A stretch of DNA of 64,000 nt from Chitinophagales bacterium (GCA_044225825.1 JBGAIB010000002.1:193660-257659), one strand, 5' to 3'. Positions 1 to 14,017 are shown, numbered from the stretch's first letter. The notes: generated from the letters alone by a model not told the origin. Program-made: numbers and translations.

Positions 1-197
<197 letters not shown>

Positions 198-328
198 TTA
201 CAATTGGATTAAGCATTAATAAATACGGAATAAGCCGGTGTAGTTCGGGTTTTAAATTTGCCTGGTTTCGCGCCTGCCGGCTTGCATACTCCCTGGCGGA
301 GGTAGACCCCTACACTGAAAAAGAGGCG

Positions 329-336
329 CAAAGATA
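329..336 (-). promoter_or_regulatory. Bacteroidota sigma-A -7 element (TATCTTTG) upstream of rpoC
   Basis: Exact TAnnTTTG match on the minus strand about 135 nt upstream of the rpoC ATG. Confidence 0.6.
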
Positions 337-715
337 ATATAGAAGGGGGTTAATTGCAAGGTACACGTAGTACTATTTGTTAAAAATAATTTTCGGGTAT
401 CCGCTCTAGTTTCAGGTTTCAAGTCTAAAGTTTAAGGTTGAAAGTTGGGGACTGTCCTAAAACCAGGGGGGATCAAAATTTTTTGGGGTGGGGTTACACA
501 CGGTGGGGTTACAAAGTTTTTTGCAACCCATGCTAAGTGCCTGATAATCAATATTCATTTTTGCCCATGGGGTTACACTATGGGTTACAAATTAGATTTT
601 AACATATAAGTGGGGTGGGGGGAAAACTATCGGCTGGGCTGGGCTGGCCTCGGCACCCCAACCCTTTCCTAAGTCTCGTAAAGGAGGACCGCTACCCAGC
701 TCACCAATCACCAAT

Positions 716-1831
716 TCACTGATTTACAGGCTTAAAGGAGACCAGAAATGCATTCCATTCCTGCTCGGTTGGTAAGGCATTGTTGCGTTCCAGCAGCAGG
801 GTGTAAAAACGATGGCCCACCTGAATATCGGCACAGCGGGCATAGCGTTTGGGGCCGGTAAGGGTATTTAGTTGAAAGCCGTAGGTAAAGCCGGGGTATT
901 TGCCCTGGTGCAGGTAAGGTTGCAGGTTCAGCAGGTCGCCGGTGTTGTAAAGGTCCTGTTCAAACTGCAGGGCTTCAAAAACGGTTTGGCTAATCTGTAA
1001 AAGCGGATCGGGGTCGGCTATTTCTTCGTCGCTATAGGTTTTGTAACGTACAAAATAGCCTGTTACAGCCAAGGGTAAACTCAGCAATTCGCTGGGGTGG
1101 TGGCCTTTCAGCAATTTATCGCGACTATCATTCAGTGCAGGTTTTAGCGGAAACCCCACCTGGAACGAATCGCCCTGCCAGGTATAATTAAGCGCGGGTA
1201 AAGCACTGGCCGTGTCACTCTTTATGCAGCGCACCTGCAACATGGTGGTTTTAAAAATCTCGCCGGGCACCGAATCGGGTGGCGACATATTGAAGGCTAA
1301 CGCACGTAAGGAGTCGGATTGATCTGCACTCCAGAAAAACGCACCGAGGGCTTTTGTCCAGTCGCCGGGTTGCACTTTCCAATCGCTGAGCTTTTGAGCA
1401 TTCTCCTTCGGTACGTCGCGATTGTAATCGAATACATCGGCCTTTTGATACAAGGCGTGTACCAGTGCCTCCCAATCGGCTTGCAGGGGTACATGGTAAC
1501 TTTCGGGTGCTAAACCACGCGGGTCGGCAACGGCATACCAGTTATACAGCCGTGTTTTGCCATCGGGCGCATAACACCATCCCCCGGTTTTAAGTGCAGC
1601 AAATTGCATGGCGTCCTTTATCTCAGGTATTTCATCGCCATTGCGGTAATGCGTTACACTTAAACTGCTGCCCAGCCAGGTTTGGGTATTGGCCCACAAC
1701 CATGTTTTGTGTTGTGTTTTTACTTCGTTGTAGGTGTTGCCATCCTGGTCCTTTACCTTTTGTGCTTGCAGTTGCAAGGCCAGTAGTGCCAGCAGTGCCG
1801 GCAGTAGGTACTTGTGCCTCCATGTTTTCAT
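716..1831 (-). CDS. Secreted FISUMP-domain protein (Fibrobacter succinogenes major paralogous domain)
   Basis: Signal peptide; motifs VKDQDGNTY, LSVTHYRNGDEIP, LYNWYAVADPRGLAP..HVP. Start moved to MKTW. Confidence 0.8.
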   Translation of the reverse strand: MKTWRHKYLLPALLALLALQLQAQKVKDQDGNTYNEVKTQHKTWLWANTQTWLGSSLSVTHYRNGDEIPEIKDAMQFAALKTGGWCYAPDGKTRLYNWYAVADPRGLAPESYHVPLQADWEALVHALYQKADVFDYNRDVPKENAQKLSDWKVQPGDWTKALGAFFWSADQSDSLRALAFNMSPPDSVPGEIFKTTMLQVRCIKSDTASALPALNYTWQGDSFQVGFPLKPALNDSRDKLLKGHHPSELLSLPLAVTGYFVRYKTYSDEEIADPDPLLQISQTVFEALQFEQDLYNTGDLLNLQPYLHQGKYPGFTYGFQLNTLTGPKRYARCADIQVGHRFYTLLLERNNALPTEQEWNAFLVSFKPVNQ

Positions 1832-2247
1832 ATTGCAAAGTAAGGGAGTTGTTAGCTGCAATGAAAGTGATAGAGGTCAGGTGGTTTAGTTTAAAGCTGT
1901 CCCACTTATGCGCAGCAATTTTAGATCTACCTATCCCTAACGTACTAATTAATATTTAGCCTTTTCAACGAACAGCGCAAACCCAAAGTTGTCCTCCTGA
2001 CAGGAGGACGAGGCATGCGCTGAAGTTGAGCCCTTGCGCGGCGCGCTTTGCCGGAGGTGGTCGAGAATCATTACTAGAAGAGAATATTAAAGCCCAATCA
2101 CCCCCTCCGAAAAAACAAAGCTATTCAAGTGCCGCGCAGTAATGTTTTTTCTCGTCCCCCTCGGCCAAGGCATAAATGGCCAGTGCAAGGGGGACAGCTA
2201 TAGTGCTTTTTGAGCAAGTAGAAGATAGATTTTGCCATTGACTGCCT

Positions 2248-2590
2248 CGCAACCTACTAACTTCCGTCCCGAAGTTTCGGGAGGAAGAACCGCAACGCAG
2301 GGCCTCCTTTTCAAGCGGCATTCTGCATTCTAAAATCTAAAATCCGCCAACGCAACCTACTAACTTCCTACAGGAAGAACCGTTACCCAGGGCCTCGCAA
2401 CCCACTAACTTCCTTTCCGACGCCTCGGAAGGGAGAACCGCCAGGCAATGCTACGCAACCTACTAACTTCCGACCGGAAGAACCGCCACCCAGGGCCTCT
2501 TTTTCAATCAGCATTCTGCATTCTAAAATCTAAAATGCCGGCAACGCAACCTACTAACTTCCGACCGGAAGAACCGCCACCCAGTTTACT
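2248..2590. repeat. Array of five CGCAACCTACTAACTTCC-(variable)-GGAAGAACCG hairpin units
   Basis: 18-nt core at 2248, 2351, 2396 (one mismatch), 2454 and 2545; CTTCC pairs with the following GGAAG (GGGAG in copy 3). Confidence 0.9.
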
Positions 2591-2752
2591 CTCCAATTAT
2601 CATTCCGCGGGCTACGCAACTTCAGCCCTAAAGAGAGGGCTACGCAGTTCACAAATCAGCAAATAATAACCTAAGGCATAAGGCACATGTGATGACTATC
2701 ATGTATAAGGCTGACAAAGAAATTTACCTTCGCCGCCTTAAAACCAGCCAAC

Positions 2753-3331
2753 ATGAGTTTAGAGAATACCCTGCGCGCCCGTGCCAATAACCAGTGCGAA
2801 CTTTGCAAAAGCACCGAAAATCTGACTGTTTATAATATACCTCCTAACTCGGATGAACGTCCGGAAGATAGTTTGCTGGTTTGCGAGAAATGCAGCAAGC
2901 AGCTAAACAAAAAAGAAGAATTAGATGCTGCCCACTGGGCTTGCTTAACCGAAAGCATGTGGAGCGAGGTGCCTGCCGTGCAGGTAGTAAGCTGGCGTAT
3001 GTTAAACCGCCTGCGTAACGAAACCTGGGCTTCGGATGCTATTGATCAACTGTATCTGGATGATGATAACCTGGCCTGGGCCAAGGCCACCGGCGACCAT
3101 GAGAATAGCAGCGAAGTAGAGTTGCACCGCGATAGCAATGGCACGGTGTTGCAGGACGGCGATAATGTGGTATTAATTAAAACCCTGGATGTAAAAGGCA
3201 GCACCTTAAAAGCTACCTTAGGCACAGTGGTAAAAGGCATTCGCTTAGTGCAGGACAATGTGGAACAGATTGAAGGCAAAATTGAAGGGCAAACGATTGT
3301 AATACTTACGAAGTATTTGAGGAAGAATTAG
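2753..3331 (+). CDS. PhnA/YjdM-domain zinc-ribbon protein
   Basis: CELC and CEKC zinc motifs; C-terminal DSNGTVLQDGDNVVLIKTLDVKG PhnA signature. Confidence 0.88.
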   Translation: MSLENTLRARANNQCELCKSTENLTVYNIPPNSDERPEDSLLVCEKCSKQLNKKEELDAAHWACLTESMWSEVPAVQVVSWRMLNRLRNETWASDAIDQLYLDDDNLAWAKATGDHENSSEVELHRDSNGTVLQDGDNVVLIKTLDVKGSTLKATLGTVVKGIRLVQDNVEQIEGKIEGQTIVILTKYLRKN

Positions 3332-3704
3332 GGGTTAGTAAGGTTAACATCGAGGTTAAATGGGGGATAAACAATTGATGGATTTTTATCCTGTTTAAGC
3401 CCATGTATCGTATGTTAATCCTCCATCTGAAACCATATCCCGATTTCATTGATAGGGGGCAAAGCGAGTGCCACCATCCTCGGGGAACGTGCGCTTATGT
3501 GTTCATTTTTTTAGCCTATAGGGGTGATATTTAATTGACTATAAGGTTTTTATAAATTATTCAAATATGAACAACATCATGTAATTCATATTAACATTAC
3601 ACTCCGTACATTATTGTAAAGTTTTATCTTAGCGCTAGCCACTGAAGAATTTGCTTTTGCGTTTTTCAACATGTTTCCACAATTTAAATGATTTTTTTAT
3701 TAGG

Positions 3705-4934
3705 ATGAAGGATACAATACGCCTTGCGGTCATAAGCGACATTCACTGTCACATTAAAAACAGGAAAGCCTTGGACGGGAAAGAGATTGGTGATGTTTCA
3801 TTTTTAACGACATCCACAGCTCGATTTCCACCTAAGCAAAACCCAGTGCAATCTATTCTAGACTTAATTAAAGAAAGAAAGCTAACTGCTGATTTTGTTC
3901 TAGCCCCAGGAGATTTCGCTGATAAAATAGACGAATCTGGGTTTCGTCATGCATGGACCGAAGTTGTTGAAATCGCAGAAGCGCTAGGTGTTTCGAAGGA
4001 TAAAGTAATCTCAACCATCGGAAATCACGATGTAAATTCAAGAGAAGCTGGAAAGGAAGACGTATTCCGATTTGCACGTAATATGCATCCGTTATTCCCT
4101 TTTGCAAGTTCTGCCGAGAAGGCAAAATTTTGGGATAATGGTTATGCAATTTTAAATTTTTCTGAATTAGACTTTTGCGTTCTTGTAATTAATAGTTCAC
4201 ACCACCACTATTCATTACCAGAAGCTCGCCAAGGAAAATTTGATGACCGGAGCCTAGCTTTACTTGAAGAAGACATGAAAAAATATGGGGGCGTTAAATA
4301 CAAATTGGCTATGTCCCATCATCACCCTATACCGCATGAAGAAAAGAACGGTGGAGCAACGGATAAGATGATAGGAGGAGATGTGCTACTAACCTTTTTA
4401 GAAAAAAACTCCTTCAAATATTTTGTGCATGGACATAAACATGATCCAAGAATTGCATATTCAAACCATGGACCTGATGCTCTCATGGTGTTTGCAGCCG
4501 GATCATTTTCTCGACATGCGTATTCAGACCTATCTGGAATGCTAAACACCTTTCATATATTAAATCTCGAAACTACAACCAAAATCAATTGTAATCACCA
4601 AGGCACGATTGAAACATTCACATATGCGCCGAGTTTTGGTTTTGACCACAAAGACAATCTCTACTTTCCCGCGACAGCCGGTTTCGGATGTAGCTTACCT
4701 ATTGAAAAACTCGCAGAAATGCTGTCCTCTTATTTGAAAACTGAATCCCCAGCCTTTGATACAGGTACAGCCAAAGCCTTTGAATGGTATAAAGTGCTTG
4801 CAAAATTTCCTGAAATCAGTTATATGTCACCTCTTACTTTTGAAAACTTTGGCAAATACTGCTATGATAAATATCAAATCAAATTCAAGCATCAATTGCC
4901 TGAAAGACCAGAAATGATTCACTTGCTAAAATAA
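3705..4934 (+). CDS. Calcineurin-like metallophosphoesterase
   Basis: Complete motif set SDIH, GD, GNHD, HH, HGHKH; start taken at MKDTIR. Confidence 0.9.
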   Translation: MKDTIRLAVISDIHCHIKNRKALDGKEIGDVSFLTTSTARFPPKQNPVQSILDLIKERKLTADFVLAPGDFADKIDESGFRHAWTEVVEIAEALGVSKDKVISTIGNHDVNSREAGKEDVFRFARNMHPLFPFASSAEKAKFWDNGYAILNFSELDFCVLVINSSHHHYSLPEARQGKFDDRSLALLEEDMKKYGGVKYKLAMSHHHPIPHEEKNGGATDKMIGGDVLLTFLEKNSFKYFVHGHKHDPRIAYSNHGPDALMVFAAGSFSRHAYSDLSGMLNTFHILNLETTTKINCNHQGTIETFTYAPSFGFDHKDNLYFPATAGFGCSLPIEKLAEMLSSYLKTESPAFDTGTAKAFEWYKVLAKFPEISYMSPLTFENFGKYCYDKYQIKFKHQLPERPEMIHLLK

Positions 4935-4943
4935 GCATACAAC

Positions 4944-6986
4944 ATGGAAAGAAACATTTCGCTATATGACACCAACAATGCTAAATTTATGACCCTTGAG
5001 CAGGTTGGAGAAACCTTTGTTTCGCACAGCACCTTTGCAAAATTGGCGAAAAACAAACACTCCCTCATATTAGGCCCCCGCGGTAGCGGCAAAACCACTT
5101 TTATGAAAATGTTAACTCTGCCAGCATTAAAAAAGTGGGACACGAGGGAGGACAAGTTTTTAGCGATAAAAGAAGGTCTAAACTTTATTTCAATTTATAT
5201 TCCTGCGGACTTAATTTGGGAAAAAGAAACAAAAGAAATTTCACGACTGATTGGTCGTTACCCTGCATTTCTAAGTAAGACTCTTTCAGCAATATTTAAT
5301 ATTTCAATCCTAAGCAATTTTACCAGAACCGTCCAGGATTTTTTCCAAGTAAAGAATGCAACCAACGACTATGCTCGCGCTGCTCCAATAGTTGAACGTA
5401 TGATAAGAGAATGGGGGTTGAGCACTAGCTTGGATAGAGATTTTAAAAGCGTACTAGCAGAACTAGGTTCATGGCTAAATTTGATTCACAAAAGCTGTAG
5501 TGCGCTTGAATATTCAAACCTTAAGGATCATGAGATAGAAAGACCCCACTTTTACCATTTAGACTACCTAAAGTGCCTAGAACCTGTTTGCATTATTTTT
5601 GACAAGACTTGGGAGTTGTCCAATGATAGCAAATGGGCTCTTTGTTTTGATGAGTTAGAAATTGTTCCTGAAGAAATAGTTAAAGACCTATTCACTGAAT
5701 TGCGAAATCCACCTGCCAGATTTCTCTATAAATTGAGCACATGCCCGATACCAAACTTGACACCCACTATAGAGTATGGGGCAAATCAAATGGACGAATA
5801 CGATGTTATAAAGATGTGGCCTAAAGCAATATCTAATAAGGAAACTTACGATACACAGGAGGACTCGGAGGGATACCAGAACTTTTGCTACAAATTGGCC
5901 TTATTCCGCTTTAAAAGTCAATTGTCAAAAAAGTACAACTACCCAAATGAGGAGATAGATTCATTAAGATTAGAAGATTTTTTAGGCAATTTTGATTATT
6001 GGAACGTTTTACAGGGCTATATATCTTCGTTAGATGGTAAAAAATTAGGTGTCCATAAAAATCAGCGCCATCTTGACAATGGTCCCACGAAAGATGATTT
6101 TAAACGAAATGAATTAGGATGGTTGGCCTTTAGAGAGTTGGCGGAATGGGATTCTGACTTCAAAATATATCTTATAGATAATGGTATAAACCCTAACGAT
6201 CCTAAGCCAATTACGATGAAAATCAGAACACAAATTCATCGAAAGCTAAAACAAGTGGTTTTTAATAGATTAATATTTACATACCGTAACAATAAACAGC
6301 CTAGATATAATATCCCTAGAGGCGACATCCAATTTAAAAGAATTAAAAATATTCCTTTCTACCATGGAGTTAAAACACTTATAAATATCGTTGATGGGAA
6401 CCCCAGATATTTACTTGGTGTTGTAGATGAACTGATAGATGAGCTCATGTCGCCAACAAATGGAAACAGCATTGGCCGCAAATTTAAAGCAATAGGGGCA
6501 CTTCGGCAGAATGAGATAATCGCTAAAGTTTCTGATAAGTTTTACAGTAAAATAAGTTCGATACCTGTCAAACTAGCAGTTACACCAGCATTCACTAAAC
6601 ACAAATTATATAACAAACATTTGTCTTTTTTAGTAACCGAAATTGGAAAAACGATAAGTCATCAAATCAATATAGCCCAAATTAAAGGTGAACCTTATGG
6701 GTCGATAACAATTGATAGCACTGCACAAAAAGACCCCAATTTGGTTGACCTCATTAAAATTGGCATTAACTGGGGGGCTTTTATTCTGGTAACTGATGAT
6801 GAAAAAGAAAACTACAGTGAGGTAGCGGGCAAAAGAATTAGATTGGCATATCTTTTAGCCCCAAAGTTCAAATTACCACTAAGGTTGTATAATTCATTTC
6901 CTTTAACAGATTGTCTTCATTTAAATGAAACAATTACCGCACCACAACAATCAGTTTTAAACTTTAACGAGCTCAATGGAAATTAA
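4944..6986 (+). CDS. P-loop ATPase, ORC/CDC6-like or STAND-like
   Basis: Walker A GPRGSGKTT, Walker B LCFDELE, downstream DGNPRYLL (GxP) motif. Confidence 0.8.
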   Translation: MERNISLYDTNNAKFMTLEQVGETFVSHSTFAKLAKNKHSLILGPRGSGKTTFMKMLTLPALKKWDTREDKFLAIKEGLNFISIYIPADLIWEKETKEISRLIGRYPAFLSKTLSAIFNISILSNFTRTVQDFFQVKNATNDYARAAPIVERMIREWGLSTSLDRDFKSVLAELGSWLNLIHKSCSALEYSNLKDHEIERPHFYHLDYLKCLEPVCIIFDKTWELSNDSKWALCFDELEIVPEEIVKDLFTELRNPPARFLYKLSTCPIPNLTPTIEYGANQMDEYDVIKMWPKAISNKETYDTQEDSEGYQNFCYKLALFRFKSQLSKKYNYPNEEIDSLRLEDFLGNFDYWNVLQGYISSLDGKKLGVHKNQRHLDNGPTKDDFKRNELGWLAFRELAEWDSDFKIYLIDNGINPNDPKPITMKIRTQIHRKLKQVVFNRLIFTYRNNKQPRYNIPRGDIQFKRIKNIPFYHGVKTLINIVDGNPRYLLGVVDELIDELMSPTNGNSIGRKFKAIGALRQNEIIAKVSDKFYSKISSIPVKLAVTPAFTKHKLYNKHLSFLVTEIGKTISHQINIAQIKGEPYGSITIDSTAQKDPNLVDLIKIGINWGAFILVTDDEKENYSEVAGKRIRLAYLLAPKFKLPLRLYNSFPLTDCLHLNETITAPQQSVLNFNELNGN

Positions 6987-7941
6987 AAACACACAACAAC
7001 TTTATGTTGATGACCTGTTTGCCATGGATTTTGATTTACTTTTATGCGCTTCAGGTGTAGAAAAGCGAGGGCCTTATTTTGCGGAAAAATATGGGAGTAA
7101 GATTAATGCAAAGAAACGAATAGCCCTAGCCTACACTGATCGAGAGATTTTGATGAATCAAAAGAATAGGAGCGCTTTCATCAGGTACGGCTTTGATCTA
7201 TTGGATAGCAAGGGTGAAACATTAAATGAAGTCCTTTCAATTGCAAAAGACCTCCTTAAGCTTCCTAAGTCGGAAATAAATGTATTAATAGATTACTCAT
7301 CAATGACCAAAATATGGTATGGCGGGTTATTAAATACCCTGCTTTCCACTGAAACAAATAAAAAAATTAATCTCTTCTATACTTATACACCTGCTTTACA
7401 TGAAAAGGTTAGCGAAGAACATCCTAACGCTTACATAGATATTTTACCGGGATATTCACGTTTGACCTTGCCAAACGAAAAAAGAATTCTATTAATAGGT
7501 CTAGGTCAAGAAAAAGTTCGCGCAATTGGGTTAGTAGAATACTTAGAAATAAACAATGGCGATATATTCCTTTTTCACTCTGATAATAAATTTAACTCGG
7601 CAATTGCTAACGAAGTCTATAAAAAGAATTCTGATCTAATAAAAACGGTATCACGCAATAGGGTCTTAAAATATGACATAAACGATATGAAGGCGGTTGA
7701 ATCCACTCTCATGGCTATATGCTATAAAACGAATCTGGACAATCCGCTTAGTGGTATATCCTTGGCTCCTTTAGGTCCCAAGCCATTCGCTTTAATCTGT
7801 ATGGTTGTTGCCAAGAAACTTGATAATGTCAAGGTCTTTCGTATTGGAGCTGGTGAGCAGGGGTCTCCTGCAAAACGTTACCCTGATACTACCAAGCGCC
7901 CGATTGTGTACAAAATTATCATTGCTCCAAACGTAAATTAG
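6976..7941 (+). CDS. Hypothetical protein, probable tandem Rossmann-like (CARF/DUF6293-like) fold
   Basis: 321-aa ORF overlapping the ATPase end; repeated GxE..R strands, IDYSSM and LAPLGPKPF motifs; the fold is inferred. Confidence 0.6.
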   Translation: MEIKNTQQLYVDDLFAMDFDLLLCASGVEKRGPYFAEKYGSKINAKKRIALAYTDREILMNQKNRSAFIRYGFDLLDSKGETLNEVLSIAKDLLKLPKSEINVLIDYSSMTKIWYGGLLNTLLSTETNKKINLFYTYTPALHEKVSEEHPNAYIDILPGYSRLTLPNEKRILLIGLGQEKVRAIGLVEYLEINNGDIFLFHSDNKFNSAIANEVYKKNSDLIKTVSRNRVLKYDINDMKAVESTLMAICYKTNLDNPLSGISLAPLGPKPFALICMVVAKKLDNVKVFRIGAGEQGSPAKRYPDTTKRPIVYKIIIAPNVN

Positions 7942-8767
7942 TAATTAGATATTCTTTGGTCTGCTGTCGACTCGCTCCGGCGCCTCCAATGGTGTTGGCT
8001 TTTGAAAGCACTTTAAATTGTCCGACCTTTCGGTAACACTCTCTAATCCAAGGATTATATGCATTGGTCATTATAAAATAGACATTTTCACCATTCAGCA
8101 CCTCTAATAGATTTGCCAAATCAATCTGGTCTGCCAGCGAAAAAGTCTTCTTATTATATTGAATAAATTTTTTATCCTTTGACGGGATAGCATAAGGGGG
8201 ATCAATGAAAATTAGATCTCCAGCTTTTACTCTCTTTAATGAGTCACGAAAATCACAGGAATCCAAGCCAACGCCTTTAAGTCGCGCAGAGGCATTTAAA
8301 ATTGCTTCTTCGTTAACTAGTTCGATATTTCTAAACCCATATGGGACATTATATAGCCCATCTGAATTTTCTCTATAAATACCATTAAAGGATGTCCTAT
8401 TCAAATAAATGAATTGCGCCGCCTGTTCATATGGATCTTTGTACTTCCTTTGTCTAATTTTATAATAGTAAACTTCCGTGTTCTTGTAATTGCCCAATAT
8501 ATCCAGAATTAATTGTGGATTATCTCTTACACATCTGTAGGTATTTATTAAATTCTGATTTATGTCAGATAGGTACGCAGCGGACTTGCTCAAGCTAAAA
8601 AAAACCGCCCCTGATCCTAAAAAAGGTTCATGATATGTGCCAAATTTTGAAGGAGCAATCCTTTTAAATTCCTTAATGAACCAAGATTTGCCGCCAGCCC
8701 ACCTGAGAAATGGCTTGCCTGGTTCATCTTCAGAAAAAAAACTCATTTGCCCTCTGTTTGCAGTCAT
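7919..8767 (-). CDS. Dam-family (D12 class) N6-adenine DNA methyltransferase
   Basis: KPFLRWAGGKS, EPFLGSGAVF, LSDIN and catalytic DPPY; start uncertain (8746, 8767 or 8857). Confidence 0.92.
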   Translation of the reverse strand: MTANRGQMSFFSEDEPGKPFLRWAGGKSWFIKEFKRIAPSKFGTYHEPFLGSGAVFFSLSKSAAYLSDINQNLINTYRCVRDNPQLILDILGNYKNTEVYYYKIRQRKYKDPYEQAAQFIYLNRTSFNGIYRENSDGLYNVPYGFRNIELVNEEAILNASARLKGVGLDSCDFRDSLKRVKAGDLIFIDPPYAIPSKDKKFIQYNKKTFSLADQIDLANLLEVLNGENVYFIMTNAYNPWIRECYRKVGQFKVLSKANTIGGAGASRQQTKEYLITNLRLEQ

Positions 8768-8916
8768 AACATAAACAAAATTAAGAGAGCTGTTGACAAT
8801 TACTTTGCCAGATATCCACGTCCAAACACGTAAGAAGTCTATCTCATTTGTGCCCATTGTTTGGCTAATCAGCCACCCGTAAAAAGAGACTAAGCCTGTT
8901 CTCGTATCGCGGAATT

Positions 8917-9351
8917 CTATTCTGCCTCCTCTGGTGCAAACTTAAATGTCATGCTTACCTCTACACCATCTTGCTTTTCCTTCCGCTGAACTTCCAGCAG
9001 GTTTTTATTAAGTAAAACCACTTTCCATTTCTCCTTGTCCTCACCTTCCGGCTTCAAGGTCAACACTGTACCATCGTCGTTTATCCGCCACTCTCCCTTT
9101 GCCTTATCCGTATATCTAGGGTGTCCGTAATCTTCCGGAAACATAAATTCGTAGTCTCCGTCCTCATCCAGTTCCAGATACACCTCAAATTTCTTACCAT
9201 CGGAAGTGGGCGGCACTTCGTCCACCTTAATAGTTACTCCGGCTACCACAATTTCCTTAGCCAGCCATTTACGGGTAATTAGCTTTTTCTTGTCGGTGCA
9301 GGAGGCAAGTGCCAACGTGGTGAGGAATAAAAGGAGCAAACGATTTTTCAT
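8917..9351 (-). CDS. Lipocalin-like lipoprotein
   Basis: Lipobox LASC; beta-strand pattern LITRKW..GEWRINDDGTVLTL. Confidence 0.65.
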   Translation of the reverse strand: MKNRLLLLFLTTLALASCTDKKKLITRKWLAKEIVVAGVTIKVDEVPPTSDGKKFEVYLELDEDGDYEFMFPEDYGHPRYTDKAKGEWRINDDGTVLTLKPEGEDKEKWKVVLLNKNLLEVQRKEKQDGVEVSMTFKFAPEEAE

Positions 9352-9637
9352 AGCGGGTTTTGGGGTGGAGTATATTCAAATATATAAAAATGTCGTTTTT
9401 ATACCTTACTTTAATTATTGTCATTACAGGCGCTTTTCAGTCCTACCTAAGACTTTAGAAGGAAGGGGGGCACCTGCTCCGTATTTAAGCTTAGCAGCGA
9501 AAGAGGTCATCCGAGGATATAGTGCCGCAATTTTGTTAATTAAGAAATCTTTTTTGAAACTTACTATCCTTTTGTATACCTTTACCGTACGGTTCTTTGA
9601 CATACTATCCTGCCGCACTCAAATCGGAAGGATCTCA

Positions 9638-9790
9638 TCTGCTTTCTGATCTCTGTTTTGGCCATCTGCTTAAAAATGTGTAAAGTTCCAAAGCGACCTT
9701 TATCCCTGTAAAGTTGCAGCAACGATAAGCAACGCGTTGTCTGCTTTCTGATCTCTGTTTTCTGCGCTCCGCTTAAAAAAGTGTAAAGTT
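9638..9790. repeat. Imperfect ~50-bp direct repeat, two copies
   Basis: TCTGCTTTCTGATCTCTGTTTT..GCTTAAAAA.GTGTAAAGTT at 9638-9687 and 9740-9790. Confidence 0.85.
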
Positions 9791-10061
9791 GTTCCTTAAA
9801 GGCAATCCACAGTTTTTCTATTGTTTAACGGCCTGCACCAAAGCCCATTTGCGTCATATTAAATTTTAAGCGATTTGTGCACTCCAATTTCAACTGCACA
9901 AATCTGCACAAATAGCAATTTGCCTAATGGGTAAACTGGTGGTTTTGCATGGTTTTAACAACAAAATCTCTCATATGAGGTTTTTTATAACTTGTGCATA
10001 AGCAAAAAACCTGCACAAGCATGCACAAGCAGTGTGGATAACCCGCCTCTGGTTGCCCTTC

Positions 10062-10838
10062 TTAAGGCTTTATAAAATAATCTGCCGGGTAGTAACGCAT
10101 ATTTTTAAAACTATCGGTAGGCGTATTGGTAACCAAAGCAACCGCAGGCGCGGCATAACACCAGTAACCCATGTAGTTGTAGTCCTCCAGCATATGTTTG
10201 CCAAACAAAGGATGGCCCTTCATTTTGGTCATAAAGCTTTTGATGTAAGCCGTTATCAATTCTGCGCGTTTATCGGCATCCGTTTCGGTTACTGCGGCAT
10301 ACAAAGGTTCCAGTTTGATAGCGTAGTTAACCGGTCCGCTTACAGGCCAGTCGGGCAGTTTATAGTTTACCAGTTTGTCAATCAGCAAATCGGTACCGGG
10401 CTTAATGGTATCTTTTAAAAACTGCCGGAACAATTCTTCGTCAATGTTCAGCAATATGCTTTTACTTACCAGTAACAGCACATCGTAATAGCTTTCAAAA
10501 AGCCCTTTGTAAGCCTTGCTGAACATAACATACTCCTTATCCTTCGGTGGTTTGCTGAACGATTCGATAGGTGAAGTGTTTGATTTCCGATGCCAGGCCA
10601 TCATGGGCTTTTGCAGTTCCAGCACCCTGGTAAAAACCGGTACAATGTCTTTCATAGCATCACCGCGGCTATACATGATGTCGGCTACCTCGTGATATTT
10701 GTATTGGATGCTATAGTCGAGTTCGCCCCGGCCCGGCAATACATTTGCTTCTTCAAATTTTTTAGCCCAGCCAAGTTTATCTTCCAGGTGTGCGGTGTAA
10801 ACGTCGTAGGTTTTAGTAGTGTCTCTAACAGGGTTCAT
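10062..10838 (-). CDS. PoNi-like (DUF1910/DUF1911) toxin immunity protein
   Basis: C-terminal YMGYWCYAAPAVA...YYPADY matches the DUF1911 GYW..AA..YYP pattern. Confidence 0.75.
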   Translation of the reverse strand: MNPVRDTTKTYDVYTAHLEDKLGWAKKFEEANVLPGRGELDYSIQYKYHEVADIMYSRGDAMKDIVPVFTRVLELQKPMMAWHRKSNTSPIESFSKPPKDKEYVMFSKAYKGLFESYYDVLLLVSKSILLNIDEELFRQFLKDTIKPGTDLLIDKLVNYKLPDWPVSGPVNYAIKLEPLYAAVTETDADKRAELITAYIKSFMTKMKGHPLFGKHMLEDYNYMGYWCYAAPAVALVTNTPTDSFKNMRYYPADYFIKP

Positions 10839-11062
10839 AAATTAGGTTTATACAAATATGAAACTTGCTGCGCACGCCTCCAAACATAGGTGTTAAATGG
10901 CTATAAGTGACCCACGTCAGTTCTTGTTAGTTGATAATCAACGCCTATTATGAGTACCGTCAGGTACAGGAGGTATTAGCCGCCGTTCCTTTGCACTGCC
11001 AAAACACGGCAGTAAACACCTAACACCGCTTTTGACAGCACTAACCCCTAAAATTTTGCATT

Positions 11063-11986
11063 ATGAAAAAGTTGATCTACCTGATAGCCGCCCTGTTGGT
11101 ACTGGGCGGTTGTAAAAAAGAGGCCGGCCTGAATGAACAGGAAGCCGCCACACATGTTTTAAAATGCACCACCCCTACCTACTGCGGTACGCCAACTACG
11201 GTAAATTTAATTACCGGACAGTACACGACCATTGGCAGTGTAACAGTAGCCAATGATGCCACCAACCTATACGTTACCTACAGTACCGAAAGCAGTACCT
11301 GGTTTTTAACGCAGGTACATCTGTATGTTGGCGATGTTAGCGCCCTGCCTAAAAACTGGGGCGGTAACCCGGTGGTAGGTGCCTATCCTTATTCGCATAC
11401 TTTTTGCGCGCCCTATGCTAAAACCTACACCTTTACAATTCCTTTAGCCAACCTGCCGGAATGTTTTGCGGTATCAGCACATGCGGCCGTAGTTAAAAAA
11501 TATGGCAACTCCATCTGCAACAGTTCTACTGCGTGGGGCCAGGGCACCCGCATTGGCTGCAATAATTGGGGCATGTATTTTAATACCTGCAAACAAAGTT
11601 GCCTGCCTACCGGCGAAGGCTGTGCTTATAGCGCCCCTTACTGGTTTAACGGTTACCATACCTGGCCAACAAGTTCCGTATCCGTAGCAGGCTACACCTA
11701 TAATCAGGCAGAGGGTTACGAACTGGGGCGCTTTTACAATGGTGAAGATGGCTACCGCGATGCCTTGTTTGTAATGTTTCAATCGGCCTCCATTAAATTA
11801 AGCGGTAACACAGTTGGCCGCGATGCTTCGATATGGAGTGATGTAACTACCATTGATGCCTGGTTAACAGGTAAAGGCAAAATAAGCGTAAGCAACGCAC
11901 CGGCAGTACCGCAAAATGTTGTTGAAGCCGGCTACCATATAGCCAGCTGGCAGGACATGAACGACTGCGATTTTTCGAGCAACTAA
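11063..11986 (+). CDS. Cys-rich lipoprotein of unknown function (paralog A)
   Basis: Lipobox LGGC-KKE; collinear with 12184..13188. Confidence 0.8.
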   Translation: MKKLIYLIAALLVLGGCKKEAGLNEQEAATHVLKCTTPTYCGTPTTVNLITGQYTTIGSVTVANDATNLYVTYSTESSTWFLTQVHLYVGDVSALPKNWGGNPVVGAYPYSHTFCAPYAKTYTFTIPLANLPECFAVSAHAAVVKKYGNSICNSSTAWGQGTRIGCNNWGMYFNTCKQSCLPTGEGCAYSAPYWFNGYHTWPTSSVSVAGYTYNQAEGYELGRFYNGEDGYRDALFVMFQSASIKLSGNTVGRDASIWSDVTTIDAWLTGKGKISVSNAPAVPQNVVEAGYHIASWQDMNDCDFSSN

Positions 11987-12004
11987 TTACGCGCTTCGTT
12001 TTTT

Positions 12005-12037
12005 AAAAGTCCCGCACTGCCTTGCGGGGCTTTTTTA
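12005..12037 (+). terminator. Rho-independent terminator
   Basis: AAAAGTCCCGCA-ctgcct-TGCGGGGCTTTTTTT. Confidence 0.75.
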
Positions 12038-12183
12038 TTACGTAAACTCTTTTGCCACTAAGAAACAAAGACGCGAAGGAACGCAAAGAGAAGGATAGGG
12101 TGTTGCCCATACAACCCTTTTTACTTTGCGCCTTTGTGTGTGGAATGTTTTTTTAACGGAGCTGCTGCACCAAAAATGTTTTT

Positions 12184-13188
12184 ATGAAGAAGTTAGTACT
12201 AGCCGGTTTAACAAGCTTGTTGCTGTTAGGGGCTTGCAAAAAAGATGCGGAGTTAACACAGCAAACAACTACAACAGACAAAACCAGGTTTGATAACGCT
12301 ATACCCATAGCGAACGAAGAGCAAATAAAATTAAGCGAGGAACAGAGCTATAAGTGCTTTCATCAACAAACCAATTACTGCGGAACACCTACTACAGTTG
12401 ATTTACTAAATGCGCAACACGTTAAAATAGGAACGGTTACAGTTATCAATAGTGCCCAAAACCTGTATGTAACGTATAATGTGCAGGGCAGCGGTTGGCT
12501 TTTAAGCAAATTGCAATTGTACGCCGGCGACTGCAGCGGTGTGCCATTAACCTATCAGGGTTGCCCCAATATTAACCAGTTTACACGCAAGCTTAGTTTC
12601 TGTGGATATTATTACCCTGCTAAGTATACTATCACTATTCCTCTTAGCAACCTGCCGCAATGCTTTTGTATAGCCGCACGTGCCGAGGTGGTAAAACGCA
12701 GTGGCTGGAGCTATTGCAATAACACCATTGCATGGGCGCAGGGAACAACGATTGGTCAGGGTAGTACGGCAGGCGCCAGTTTCAGCTATTGCAAACAAAG
12801 TTGTGGCGGACCTTCTACCGATCCCGGATGTGGCTATCGTGCGCCTTATTGGTTTAATGGTTACAATAACTGGCCTGGCGCCATGGTTACTGTGGCAGGT
12901 ATACCTTACACCCAGGCTGAAGGTTTTGCATTGGGCTATTATCAAAACAATGTGGCCTATTCGGAGGCGTTGTATGCTTTCTTTCAACTGGCCAGTGTAC
13001 GGTTAAGCGGCAACAGTATTGGTACGGAAGCTCCGATTTGGGGTGATGTAGCAGTTATAGAAGCCTGGTTAAGTGGTAAGGGAAAAATTACCACTGCTAA
13101 CCTGCCGGCTGTTACCCCTGAAGTAATGACCGCAGCCAATAACATTGAGCAGTGGTTAGACGCGAACGATTGTGATTTCAGTAGCTAA
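12184..13188 (+). CDS. Cys-rich lipoprotein of unknown function (paralog B)
   Basis: Lipobox LGAC-KKD; shares YCGTPTTV, NLYVTY, TIPL.NLP.CF, GC.Y.APYWFNGY..WP and NDCDFSS with paralog A. Confidence 0.8.
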   Translation: MKKLVLAGLTSLLLLGACKKDAELTQQTTTTDKTRFDNAIPIANEEQIKLSEEQSYKCFHQQTNYCGTPTTVDLLNAQHVKIGTVTVINSAQNLYVTYNVQGSGWLLSKLQLYAGDCSGVPLTYQGCPNINQFTRKLSFCGYYYPAKYTITIPLSNLPQCFCIAARAEVVKRSGWSYCNNTIAWAQGTTIGQGSTAGASFSYCKQSCGGPSTDPGCGYRAPYWFNGYNNWPGAMVTVAGIPYTQAEGFALGYYQNNVAYSEALYAFFQLASVRLSGNSIGTEAPIWGDVAVIEAWLSGKGKITTANLPAVTPEVMTAANNIEQWLDANDCDFSS

Positions 13189-13298
13189 TAAAGTAATCAT
13201 GCGTGTTCCTAAAAGTCCCTTCCGGTAAAACGGAGGGGACCCTTTGTTTGGGGAGGAATGCTGCGGAATATTTTCCTTGTATCTTCGTTTATATAAAA

Positions 13299-13679
13299 AT
13301 GAACGATATGAAATGGTATGTGAGTTTAGTATTGATGGGTTTGTTTTTAACCCTTGGTAGTTTACAGGCAACTGCGCAAAGCAGCACCACTAATAAAGGT
13401 GCCACGGTTAAAGGCAATAATGGCGGCAGCGCTACAGCGAATAAACAAAAGGCTGAAATAAAAGGCACTAACGGCGGCAACACCGAAATGACCAAAAAAC
13501 ATGCAGAGATAAAAACTGCTGATGGCGGCAGTGCCGAAGCCAATAAGCAAAAGGCCGAAATAAAAGGCACCAACGGTGGCATGGCGAAAGCCGATAAAAA
13601 CGGGTTAGTAATAAAGGGACCTAACGGCGGAGGTTTTACCATACCCGGGGCTAAAAAGAAGAAGAAAAACGGCAATTAA
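13299..13679 (+). CDS. Small secreted basic protein with KGxNGG repeats
   Basis: Signal peptide; ANKQKAEIKGTNGG occurs twice; TATCTTCG -7-like element just upstream. Confidence 0.65.
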   Translation: MNDMKWYVSLVLMGLFLTLGSLQATAQSSTTNKGATVKGNNGGSATANKQKAEIKGTNGGNTEMTKKHAEIKTADGGSAEANKQKAEIKGTNGGMAKADKNGLVIKGPNGGGFTIPGAKKKKKNGN

Positions 13680-13819
13680 GCCGTATTGTCCCTAAATATA
13701 GGGACACCATACATATAATAACTTGTAATTTATTGTTCTTACGATTTGCACCGAGGTAAAATAACCTTCATATTTGTTTAAAGCGGGACTGGACACCCTG
13801 CTTTATTAAAAACCGAGAT

Positions 13820-14017
13820 GTGATGAGGAACCCTGCTTTTACCCTGGAGCAGTGGAGGGATATTTTTAAATCGATTGAAACCCTCCCTGAGTACGAGGCC
13901 TTCGAAGAAATGTTTCGCAGCGACTGCATCATTGCAGGCTGGGATGTGTTGGAGTGGAGTACGGTTACACGTATTGCCCGGCAAAAAATGCAAGAGCTGG
14001 TAAAGAGCATTCAATAG
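13820..14017 (+). CDS. Small hypothetical protein
   Basis: 65-aa ORF filling the gap before the convergent radical SAM gene; no motif recognised. Confidence 0.35.
   Translation: MMRNPAFTLEQWRDIFKSIETLPEYEAFEEMFRSDCIIAGWDVLEWSTVTRIARQKMQELVKSIQ

Follow-up and report, generated by a model that had tools for sequence, protein, structure and literature searches.

Here we describe a cluster of four genes in a 64,000-nt stretch of DNA from a Chitinophagales bacterium (GCA_044225825.1, JBGAIB010000002.1:193660-257659). We call the whole of this stretch the window, and all coordinates below count from its first letter. The cluster is a real and intact member of a predicted kind of system, one that couples a candidate effector, an AAA+ ATPase, a CARF protein and a DNA methyltransferase, and for which we found no experimental test in the literature. 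We named the first three genes A, B and C by their order, and refer to the fourth as the methylase gene:

3705-4934, plus strand: gene A, calcineurin-like metallophosphoesterase with a C-terminal winged helix; predicted effector
4944-6986, plus strand: gene B, ORC-CDC6-like AAA+ ATPase of 680 residues; predicted switch or scaffold
6976-7941, plus strand: gene C, stand-alone tandem-CARF protein of the CARF6 clade, 321 residues; predicted ligand sensor
7919-8857, minus strand: methylase gene, Dam-family D12 N6-adenine DNA methyltransferase; conserved fourth component

Genes A, B and C are tightly packed: A and B are separated by 9 nt (4935-4943), and B and C share 11 nt (6976-6986). The methylase gene is convergent with gene C, and the 3' ends of the two overlap by 23 nt. 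We placed the start of gene A at the ATG at 3705; an alternative in-frame TTG lies at 3651. The GC content is 0.34-0.40 at 3501-8500, against 0.44-0.53 at 1-3500 and past about 10500. The first-pass annotation of this DNA had described three closely packed genes in an AT-rich block, and both the coordinates of the open reading frames (ORFs) and the base composition confirm that description. A scan for sigma-70 promoters and terminators gave no more matches than were found in shuffled sequence, and no Rfam family was detected in window positions 1-14000.

We found that residues 5-248 of the gene A product match the Metallophos family (PF00149, E 3.2e-14), and that residues 325-382 match wHTH-Calcineurin_assc (PF24408, 29.7 bits against a cut-off of 27), an effector-associated winged helix-turn-helix (wHTH). 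The translation carries the motifs SDIHCH, PGDFAD, GNHD, SHHHP and GHKHD, and the phosphoesterase motif residues are invariant in all four of the aligned calcineurin-type homologues. Its assignment to the Calcineurin-CE family rests on the wHTH and on genomic context; no Pfam model of that name appeared. The best NCBIfam match, to the anti-phage phosphoesterase NF053862, reached only 51 bits against a cut-off of 420, and a sequence search of the PDB returned nothing for gene A. The phosphoesterase is predicted to be the effector of the cluster.

Gene B matches the ORC-CDC6-like family (PF24389) from profile position 3 to 568 of 571, with an E-value of 1.9e-81 and 275 bits against a cut-off of 27; NCBI labels its relatives "ORC-CDC6 family AAA ATPase". 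It shares 26-47% identity with its 24 aligned relatives, and the residues of its Walker A (GPRGSGKT), Walker B (CFDELE) and GNPR motifs are invariant in 25 of 25 aligned ATPases. GNPR presumably stands at the place of the sensor-2 arginine in Orc1/Cdc6 proteins. The AlphaFold model of gene B (predicted local distance difference test, pLDDT, 80.9) most closely resembles two archaeal AAA+ ATPases, 2qen (Z 12.3) and 2fna (Z 12.2), each aligned over about 320 residues, followed by MuB, MalT, Avs3, BrxC and ORC/Cdc6 at Z about 10. The match to nSTAND3, at 23.7 bits, falls under the cut-off of 27.2. No match to the gene B ATPase was found among 50,697 phage records. Pfam and fold thus agree with the earlier placement of this ATPase in the ORC/Cdc6-STAND clade, and all of the motifs that the first-pass annotation had named are present in the translations of A and B.

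No Pfam family matches gene C, and the PADLOC CARF6 model PDLC01915 matches it over its full length (E 4.4e-55). Its AlphaFold model, built from an 18-sequence alignment (pLDDT 91.8; predicted template-modelling score, pTM, 0.92), contains two Rossmann-like domains at about residues 16-141 and 167-298. When this model was submitted to a wide structural search with VIA-align, all 12 top rows were CARF proteins. The top fold was Can1 (6sce; Z 12.5, root-mean-square deviation (rmsd) 3.7), aligned over 231 residues across both domains, and Can2 matched with Z 12.2 and rmsd 2.6 over 113 aligned residues. Can2, Csm6, Csa3, Card1 and VC1899 aligned on the C-terminal half with Z 10-12, and the SAVED domains of Cap5, Cap4 and CalpL aligned across both halves with Z 7-8.7. 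The global matches that Foldseek returned from the PDB were all poor (TM at most 0.37), and a PDB sequence search gave no detectable similarity (best E 0.28). As modelled, gene C is a tandem CARF, that is, a pseudo-dimer in one chain. Five of its positions are invariant or near-invariant (R31, D106, G177, K269 and Y137), and the first four of these fall within or next to two loops of each half, beta1-alpha1 and beta4-alpha4, where CARF domains bind their ligands. Conserved residues in these loops would fit a ligand-binding role for gene C, which we predict to be the sensor. It had previously been called CARF-like; the PADLOC profile and the structural search place it among proteins with a true CARF fold of the nucleotide-sensor type.

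The methylase gene encodes a D12 enzyme (PF02086, E 2.1e-44; TIGR00571, 220.7 bits against a cut-off of 114.85) whose translation carries the motifs DPPY and FLGSGAV. Among proteins of solved structure it is nearest to two GATC enzymes, the DpnII methylase (2dpm, E 2e-45) and E. coli Dam. The Pfam match starts at residue 53, and the true start may be internal. This is the sole D12 methylase that we found in the genome.

We then turned to the distribution of these genes. Among 401 genomes from the host's phylum, PF24389 was present in 15, from 12 of 180 genera, and the CARF6 profile in 14, all of which are among those 15 (both, 14; ATPase only, 1; CARF6 only, 0; neither, 386). In each genome the strongest CARF6 match adjoins the ATPase gene or lies inside it, and a single extra, weak match was found elsewhere (G365:C175). 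The CARF6 profile was built partly from these same loci, which eases finding them but does not explain the lack of matches elsewhere. At E up to 1e-10, this profile matched 3878 representative clusters.

The loci that we compared were drawn from the phylum sample (L022-L035), from a class-level sample in which 11 of 401 genomes encoded the ATPase at E up to 1e-30 (L075-L081; genome G500 entered the tally only), from genome contigs among the matches listed (L002 and L003), and from plasmids (L064 and L065). Neighbouring ORFs were called with a simple script; 143 of them were scanned against Pfam, followed by 15 more, and selected ones were also scanned against PADLOC or the self-built CARF6 profile. 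Twenty-two of the loci are canonical (the window, L022-L031, L002, L003, L075-L081, L064 and L065), and in all 22 the CARF6 gene lies directly 3' of the ATPase gene. Two of these, L027 and L081, run into the end of a contig and were left out of the remaining counts. In each of the 20 assessable loci a CE-type effector is encoded directly upstream of the ATPase (for L065, as given by the record annotation), and in 19 of them a DNA methylase gene is adjacent. The twentieth, L025, has a D12 methylase gene 3 kb upstream, beside what may be a partner gene of its own. The idea that genes A, B and C form a conserved conflict-type unit therefore stands, as the order effector-ATPase-CARF6 is held across the canonical loci. 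Two further points of the first-pass annotation need revision: the module has four parts rather than three, and it resembles restriction-modification in one respect, namely that a DNA methylase adjoins nearly every locus.

The close structural relatives of gene C bring up one alternative, which is that CARF6 is an ancillary receiver of cyclic oligoadenylate (cOA) or CBASS-type signals made elsewhere in the cell, by type III CRISPR or a CD-NTase, with the ATPase and the phosphoesterase acting downstream. The closest folds are indeed all receptors for cOA or other cyclic oligonucleotides (Can1, Can2, Csm6, Csa3, Card1 and SAVED), and PADLOC groups the family with its CARF models. Against this, the host genome, which is 98.8% complete, gave no match to SMODS (PF18144), Csm1 (TIGR02578) or Cmr2 (TIGR02577), models that fired in known genomes used as controls; no cyclase family was present among the 143 neighbouring ORFs scanned; and in the 401 genomes CARF6 occurs only beside the ATPase or fused with it, bar the one weak match. 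We consider this explanation very unlikely.

The effector slot is variable. Among the 20 assessable loci it holds a calcineurin-type protein in seven, a PRTase-CE protein in seven and an HD-CE protein in six, and this replacement of one enzyme by another in sister loci supports the earlier view that the phosphoesterase occupies an effector position. The type of methylase follows the type of effector closely: all seven calcineurin loci have a D12 methylase, all six HD-CE loci have a C5 methylase, and PRTase-CE is paired with an N6_N4 methylase in four loci, with N6_Mtase in two and with a C5 methylase in one. This strict pairing is a concrete lead on the role of the methylase. The four remaining loci of the phylum sample (L032-L035) are divergent. 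In L033 and L034 a kinase, an ORC-CDC6-like ATPase and a C-terminal CARF6 are joined in one chain, which mirrors the gene order effector-ATPase-sensor, with a methylase gene next door in both cases; the L033 fusion matches the PADLOC model PDLC01925, "CARF6--CARF_STK_AAA", with 1603 bits over its full length. L035 encodes an ATPase of 523 residues without CARF6.

The calcineurin/D12 group forms a clade with 100/100 support in both the ATPase tree and the CARF6 tree (13 sequences each). In both trees this clade mixes records from Bacteroidota and Gemmatimonadota, and the module therefore appears to move as a unit. The same four-gene operon is also found on two Pseudomonadota plasmids (L064 and L065), where the RefSeq annotation reads hypothetical proteins. 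Known defence genes lie beside several sister loci, including McrBC (L002), a KAP NTPase (L025), a caspase (L028) and GmrSD (L080). Altogether, the distribution of the module is patchy and mobile.

Several sister loci have features of their own. The effector position of L033 (G240) holds a match to Glycos_transf_3 (E 6e-8), a family of nucleoside phosphorylases and phosphoribosyltransferases, and this position is flanked by a C5 methylase gene with Vsr and by a gene for a PDC-S36/NOV_C protein. In L032 (G215), Druantia DruA is encoded directly upstream of an 846-residue ORC-CDC6-like protein with a kinase-like N-terminus, and the CARF6-like protein is longer (383 residues) and carries an HFX_2341_N match; a link between the ATPase-CARF pair and Druantia-type loci is possible. 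Two loci of one genus, L022 (G192) and L029 (G108), carry the PRTase-CE/N6_N4 and the HD-CE/C5 variants of the module next to the same pair of genes, for a SpoIIE phosphatase and an adenosine deaminase, with the module in opposite orientation, which looks like a hotspot with exchange of variants. The PRTase-CE effector of L022 (6282-7226) matches the PADLOC PRTase models of type III-A retrons with E 4e-39, and one effector family therefore seems to serve both retrons and this module. In L077 and L079 the gene immediately upstream of the module encodes a thymidylate synthase, ThyA, and in L003 the one immediately downstream encodes another, ThyX. These three loci differ in type, and the association could reflect an insertion hotspot or a link with nucleotide metabolism.

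What might such a module do? We think it moderately probable that the locus is a four-gene, methylation-linked module of the immune type, with a split STAND/NLR layout, which acts by depleting nucleotides. The gene order effector-ATPase-sensor, taken together with the single-chain fusions, suggests that C would act as sensor, B as switch and A as output. Free nucleotides are the class of substrate that the calcineurin, PRTase-CE and HD-CE superfamilies, which are unrelated to one another, would be expected to have in common. On infection, the tandem CARF would bind a nucleotide-derived ligand, or alternatively the ATPase-CARF pair would read the methylation state of DNA. The ATPase, as a nucleotide-driven switch and oligomerisation scaffold, would then change state and activate the phosphoesterase, which would hydrolyse free nucleotides, either (deoxy)nucleoside di- or triphosphates, (d)NDP/(d)NTP, or NAD+. 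Phage replication would stall as a result, ending in abortive infection or dormancy. The Dam-family methylase would supply the chemical mark by which normal is told from abnormal. If this is correct, the module would add a widespread class to nucleotide-depletion immunity.

The constant presence of a methylase is also what would be expected of a very different arrangement, an unconventional ATP-dependent restriction system. Here the methylase would guard self DNA, the ATPase and the wHTH would bind unmethylated DNA, the calcineurin-fold protein would be a nuclease of the Mre11/SbcD kind, and CARF6 would be an adaptor or regulator. A methylase is linked to 20 of 20 assessable loci (19 adjacent, one 3 kb away), the effector carries a wHTH, and gene B has the fold of the DNA-binding AAA+ proteins MuB, ORC/Cdc6, TnsC and BrxC. 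In addition, the calcineurin superfamily includes nucleases, and in principle this fold could cut DNA. It is harder to reconcile with restriction that PRTase-CE takes the same slot in 7 of 20 loci, and we know of no nuclease in the PRTase superfamily. None of the proteins A, B and C matched a recognised nuclease family in Pfam or PADLOC; restriction-modification of types I-III would call for a restriction endonuclease or an HsdR/Res partner of the methylase. Furthermore, the single Calcineurin-CE domain studied so far acts on nucleotides and NAD+ (preprint 10.64898/2026.01.15.699771). We therefore regard nucleolytic restriction as unlikely, and continue with nucleotide depletion as the preferred output.

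Under nucleotide depletion, there are two ways in which the methylase could contribute. First, it could label the host's own DNA, leaving unmethylated DNA of an invader as the only trigger of the response, as in restriction-modification; we give this logic close to an even chance. Second, it could produce methylated bases that, once released from degraded host DNA, serve as a danger signal sensed by the CARF pocket, which we hold to be possible but doubtful. In the detailed form of the second logic, the CARF pocket would sense methylated mono- or oligonucleotides (carrying N6-methyladenine, m6A, here, and 5-methylcytosine, m5C, or N4-methylcytosine, m4C, in sister loci) that are freed when a phage degrades the chromosome, and the ATPase would then trigger depletion; in this specific form we find it rather unlikely. 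Each logic has a precedent. Self-marking is known from restriction-modification, BREX and MADS, and in PUA-Cal-HAD m6-dAMP has been shown to be the danger signal (preprint 10.64898/2026.01.15.699771). A signal-making methylase would give the tandem CARF a natural job in a host that has no cyclase, and it would likewise account for a host without any other Dam carrying a methylase within the module, because that methylase would make the alarm signal. If methylated nucleotides are indeed sensed, CARF6 would be the first protein of the CARF type to act as receptor for a damage signal derived from the methylome, as opposed to the product of a cyclase. The two logics are separable by loss of the methylase, which would cause autoimmunity under self-marking and lost defence under signal-making. 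The module raises the question of what a stand-alone tandem CARF senses without a cyclase, and why a methylase of matching type travels along.

We compared the locus with the systems that it most resembles. Its own class is the combination of methylase, CE effector, ORC-CDC6-like ATPase and CARF: all four parts are present here and match dedicated models, and the gene order effector-ATPase-CARF6 is identical in the 21 other loci. Two differences are apparent. The methylase gene is convergent at the 3' end, unlike in L003, L077, L064 and L065, where it is the first, co-directional gene, and the ATPase is longer (680 residues, against about 570-690).

PUA-Cal-HAD, from E. coli ECOR28, is similar in linking a conflict effector of the calcineurin type to m6A methylation of the Dam type. 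Its Calcineurin-CE domain converts dADP to dAMP and cleaves NAD+, its trigger is Dam-derived m6-dAMP, and the same preprint describes calcineurin effectors that are linked to N6-adenine methylases without restriction enzymes (10.64898/2026.01.15.699771). The locus differs from it in several ways: Pfam finds no PUA or HAD family in gene A or its neighbours, a tandem CARF and an AAA+ ATPase fill the sensor slot, and the module carries its own methylase.

With the Can1 and SAVED receptors of type III CRISPR and CBASS, gene C shares a tandem CARF-like fold that forms a one-chain pseudo-dimer. It differs from them in having no fused effector domain, and no cyclase is found in the locus or the genome. 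The STAND/NLR proteins, such as Avs and bNACHT, share the effector-NTPase-sensor logic; the folds of Avs3, MalT and plant NLRs match at Z 9-10, and relatives exist in which kinase, ATPase and CARF6 are fused (L033 and L034). Here, however, three genes are used, nSTAND3 is below its cut-off, the sensor is a CARF instead of repeats or a protein-recognition domain, and the methylase is obligatory.

BREX and MADS likewise combine a methylase with ATPases of the ORC/Cdc6-STAND type, and BrxC folds match gene B at Z 9-10. There is a weak, partial P-loop match of gene B to mad8 (E 5.7e-7, residues 33-180). In MADS, m6A tells self from phage (PMC13662399). Unlike these systems, the locus has no PglZ, PglX or BrxA/B/L and no eight-gene mad1-mad8 operon, with no other mad model matched, and its effector is an enzyme of the nucleotide type and not a nuclease module.

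The module is not of an uncatalogued kind, since models for its parts exist in both Pfam and PADLOC. Pfam holds dedicated models for the ATPase (PF24389), for the effector-associated wHTH (PF24408) and for the alternative effectors (PF24390 and PF24391). PADLOC holds 16 CARF6 models (PDLC01910-01925), including one for a kinase-AAA-CARF fusion, and all of them appeared in our scans. The CE effector families reportedly stem from work by Nicastro, Burroughs, Iyer and Aravind in Nucleic Acids Res in 2023, and CARF6 is said to go back to Makarova et al. in 2020. A full-text literature search, whose reach did not extend to the founding comparative-genomics papers, found no experimental test of the module, and a search for the term "CARF6" found it in no relevant paper. 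A protein atlas returned only "hypothetical protein" clusters for the query. The parts, then, have been catalogued by comparative genomics; what is added here is the methylase link with its counts, the effector/methylase pairing, the tandem-CARF fold and the split-STAND reading.

A number of observations weigh against an immune role exerted through nucleotide depletion. Genes A, B and C all score under the cut-off of every validated anti-phage family in NCBIfam, and they match no named PADLOC system; the PADLOC run gave only weak P-loop or partial matches for them. With E-values up to 0.1 admitted, the matches of the three proteins include no model of Rst_3HP, Septu, Gabija, PARIS or Avs, all named in the first-pass annotation, in PADLOC v2.0.0, whose coverage of these systems is unverified. 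We found no experimental support for a defence role. Searches of the locus and the genome turned up no enzyme capable of synthesising a cyclic oligonucleotide ligand. The methylase gene is convergent in the window and not co-transcribed with genes A to C; it is co-directional and adjacent in 5 of the 6 other calcineurin-type loci. The wHTH of gene A is of the DNA-binding type and nucleases occur among the calcineurin-fold enzymes, so that gene A may instead have a nucleic-acid target. The 13-row CARF6 and ATPase trees do not tell whether the sensor follows the type of methylase or that of the effector; L031, which pairs PRTase-CE with a C5 methylase, groups clearly by neither (76/82 support, long branches). 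Finally, the module has two neighbours that do not belong to the classical genes of phage defence: one encodes an NlpE-like lipoprotein, the other a PoNi immunity protein.

Both of these neighbours lie with the module in a low-GC block of roughly 7.7 kb, and neither recurs in the sister loci. We examined three relatives for absence of the block, one of which (G412) was informative. In G412 the gene that comes directly after the phnA homologue is homologous to the window genes at 11063-13188, and window positions 3332-11062 have no counterpart. An inverted repeat lies at the edges of the block:

3328-3358, unstranded: left arm of the inverted repeat, at the left edge of the low-GC block; tentative boundary mark
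11021-11051, unstranded: right arm of the inverted repeat, at the right edge of the same block

The repeat is imperfect (31 nt, 74% complementary) with a perfect core of 12 nt. The core occurs in only two copies in 64 kb, and at least two copies arose in 3 of 100 shuffles; the repeat may be the mark of an old insertion, or it may be due to chance. The block contains no transposase or integrase gene, and window positions 1-16 kb contain no integrase, transposase or tRNA gene. The contigs of 4 DNA runs, which cover the region only in short pieces of low depth, showed no joint across the whole block.

A block of this kind could also be maintained for reasons other than immunity. The module might be an addiction or maintenance unit of a mobile island, made up of a methylase and a toxic enzyme that depletes nucleotides, or else a unit of epigenetic regulation. 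That the module lies in a low-GC block missing from the same place in one relative (G412), that it occurs on plasmids, and that the genome has no D12 enzyme other than its methylase would all fit such a unit. On the other hand, the swapping of effector and methylase around a fixed ATPase-sensor pair, and the presence of McrBC, GmrSD and KAP genes beside sister loci, form a pattern usually seen with defence systems, and the mobility genes looked for in the first 16 kb of the window are missing. Although addiction and defence are not mutually exclusive, we judge a role outside immunity to be the least probable of the explanations considered here, a slim chance at best.

The remaining features of the block and its edge are of less direct bearing on the module. 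The PoNi gene (10062-10838, minus strand) encodes a PoNi_C domain protein (E 1.2e-14), an immunity protein of PoNe polymorphic toxins, and no neighbouring toxin gene was seen. A set of short direct repeats occupies 9638-9790, and in three metagenome runs the contig depth over 9722-10072 was 30-165, against about 1-6 elsewhere. For 9638-10072 this suggests a high-copy repeat element within the intergenic DNA upstream of the PoNi gene. At the right edge of the block, the adjacent plus-strand genes 11063-11986 and 12184-13188 have no Pfam family and match the same two phnA-flanking genes in G412; they therefore appear to be tandem paralogues of a lineage-specific family.

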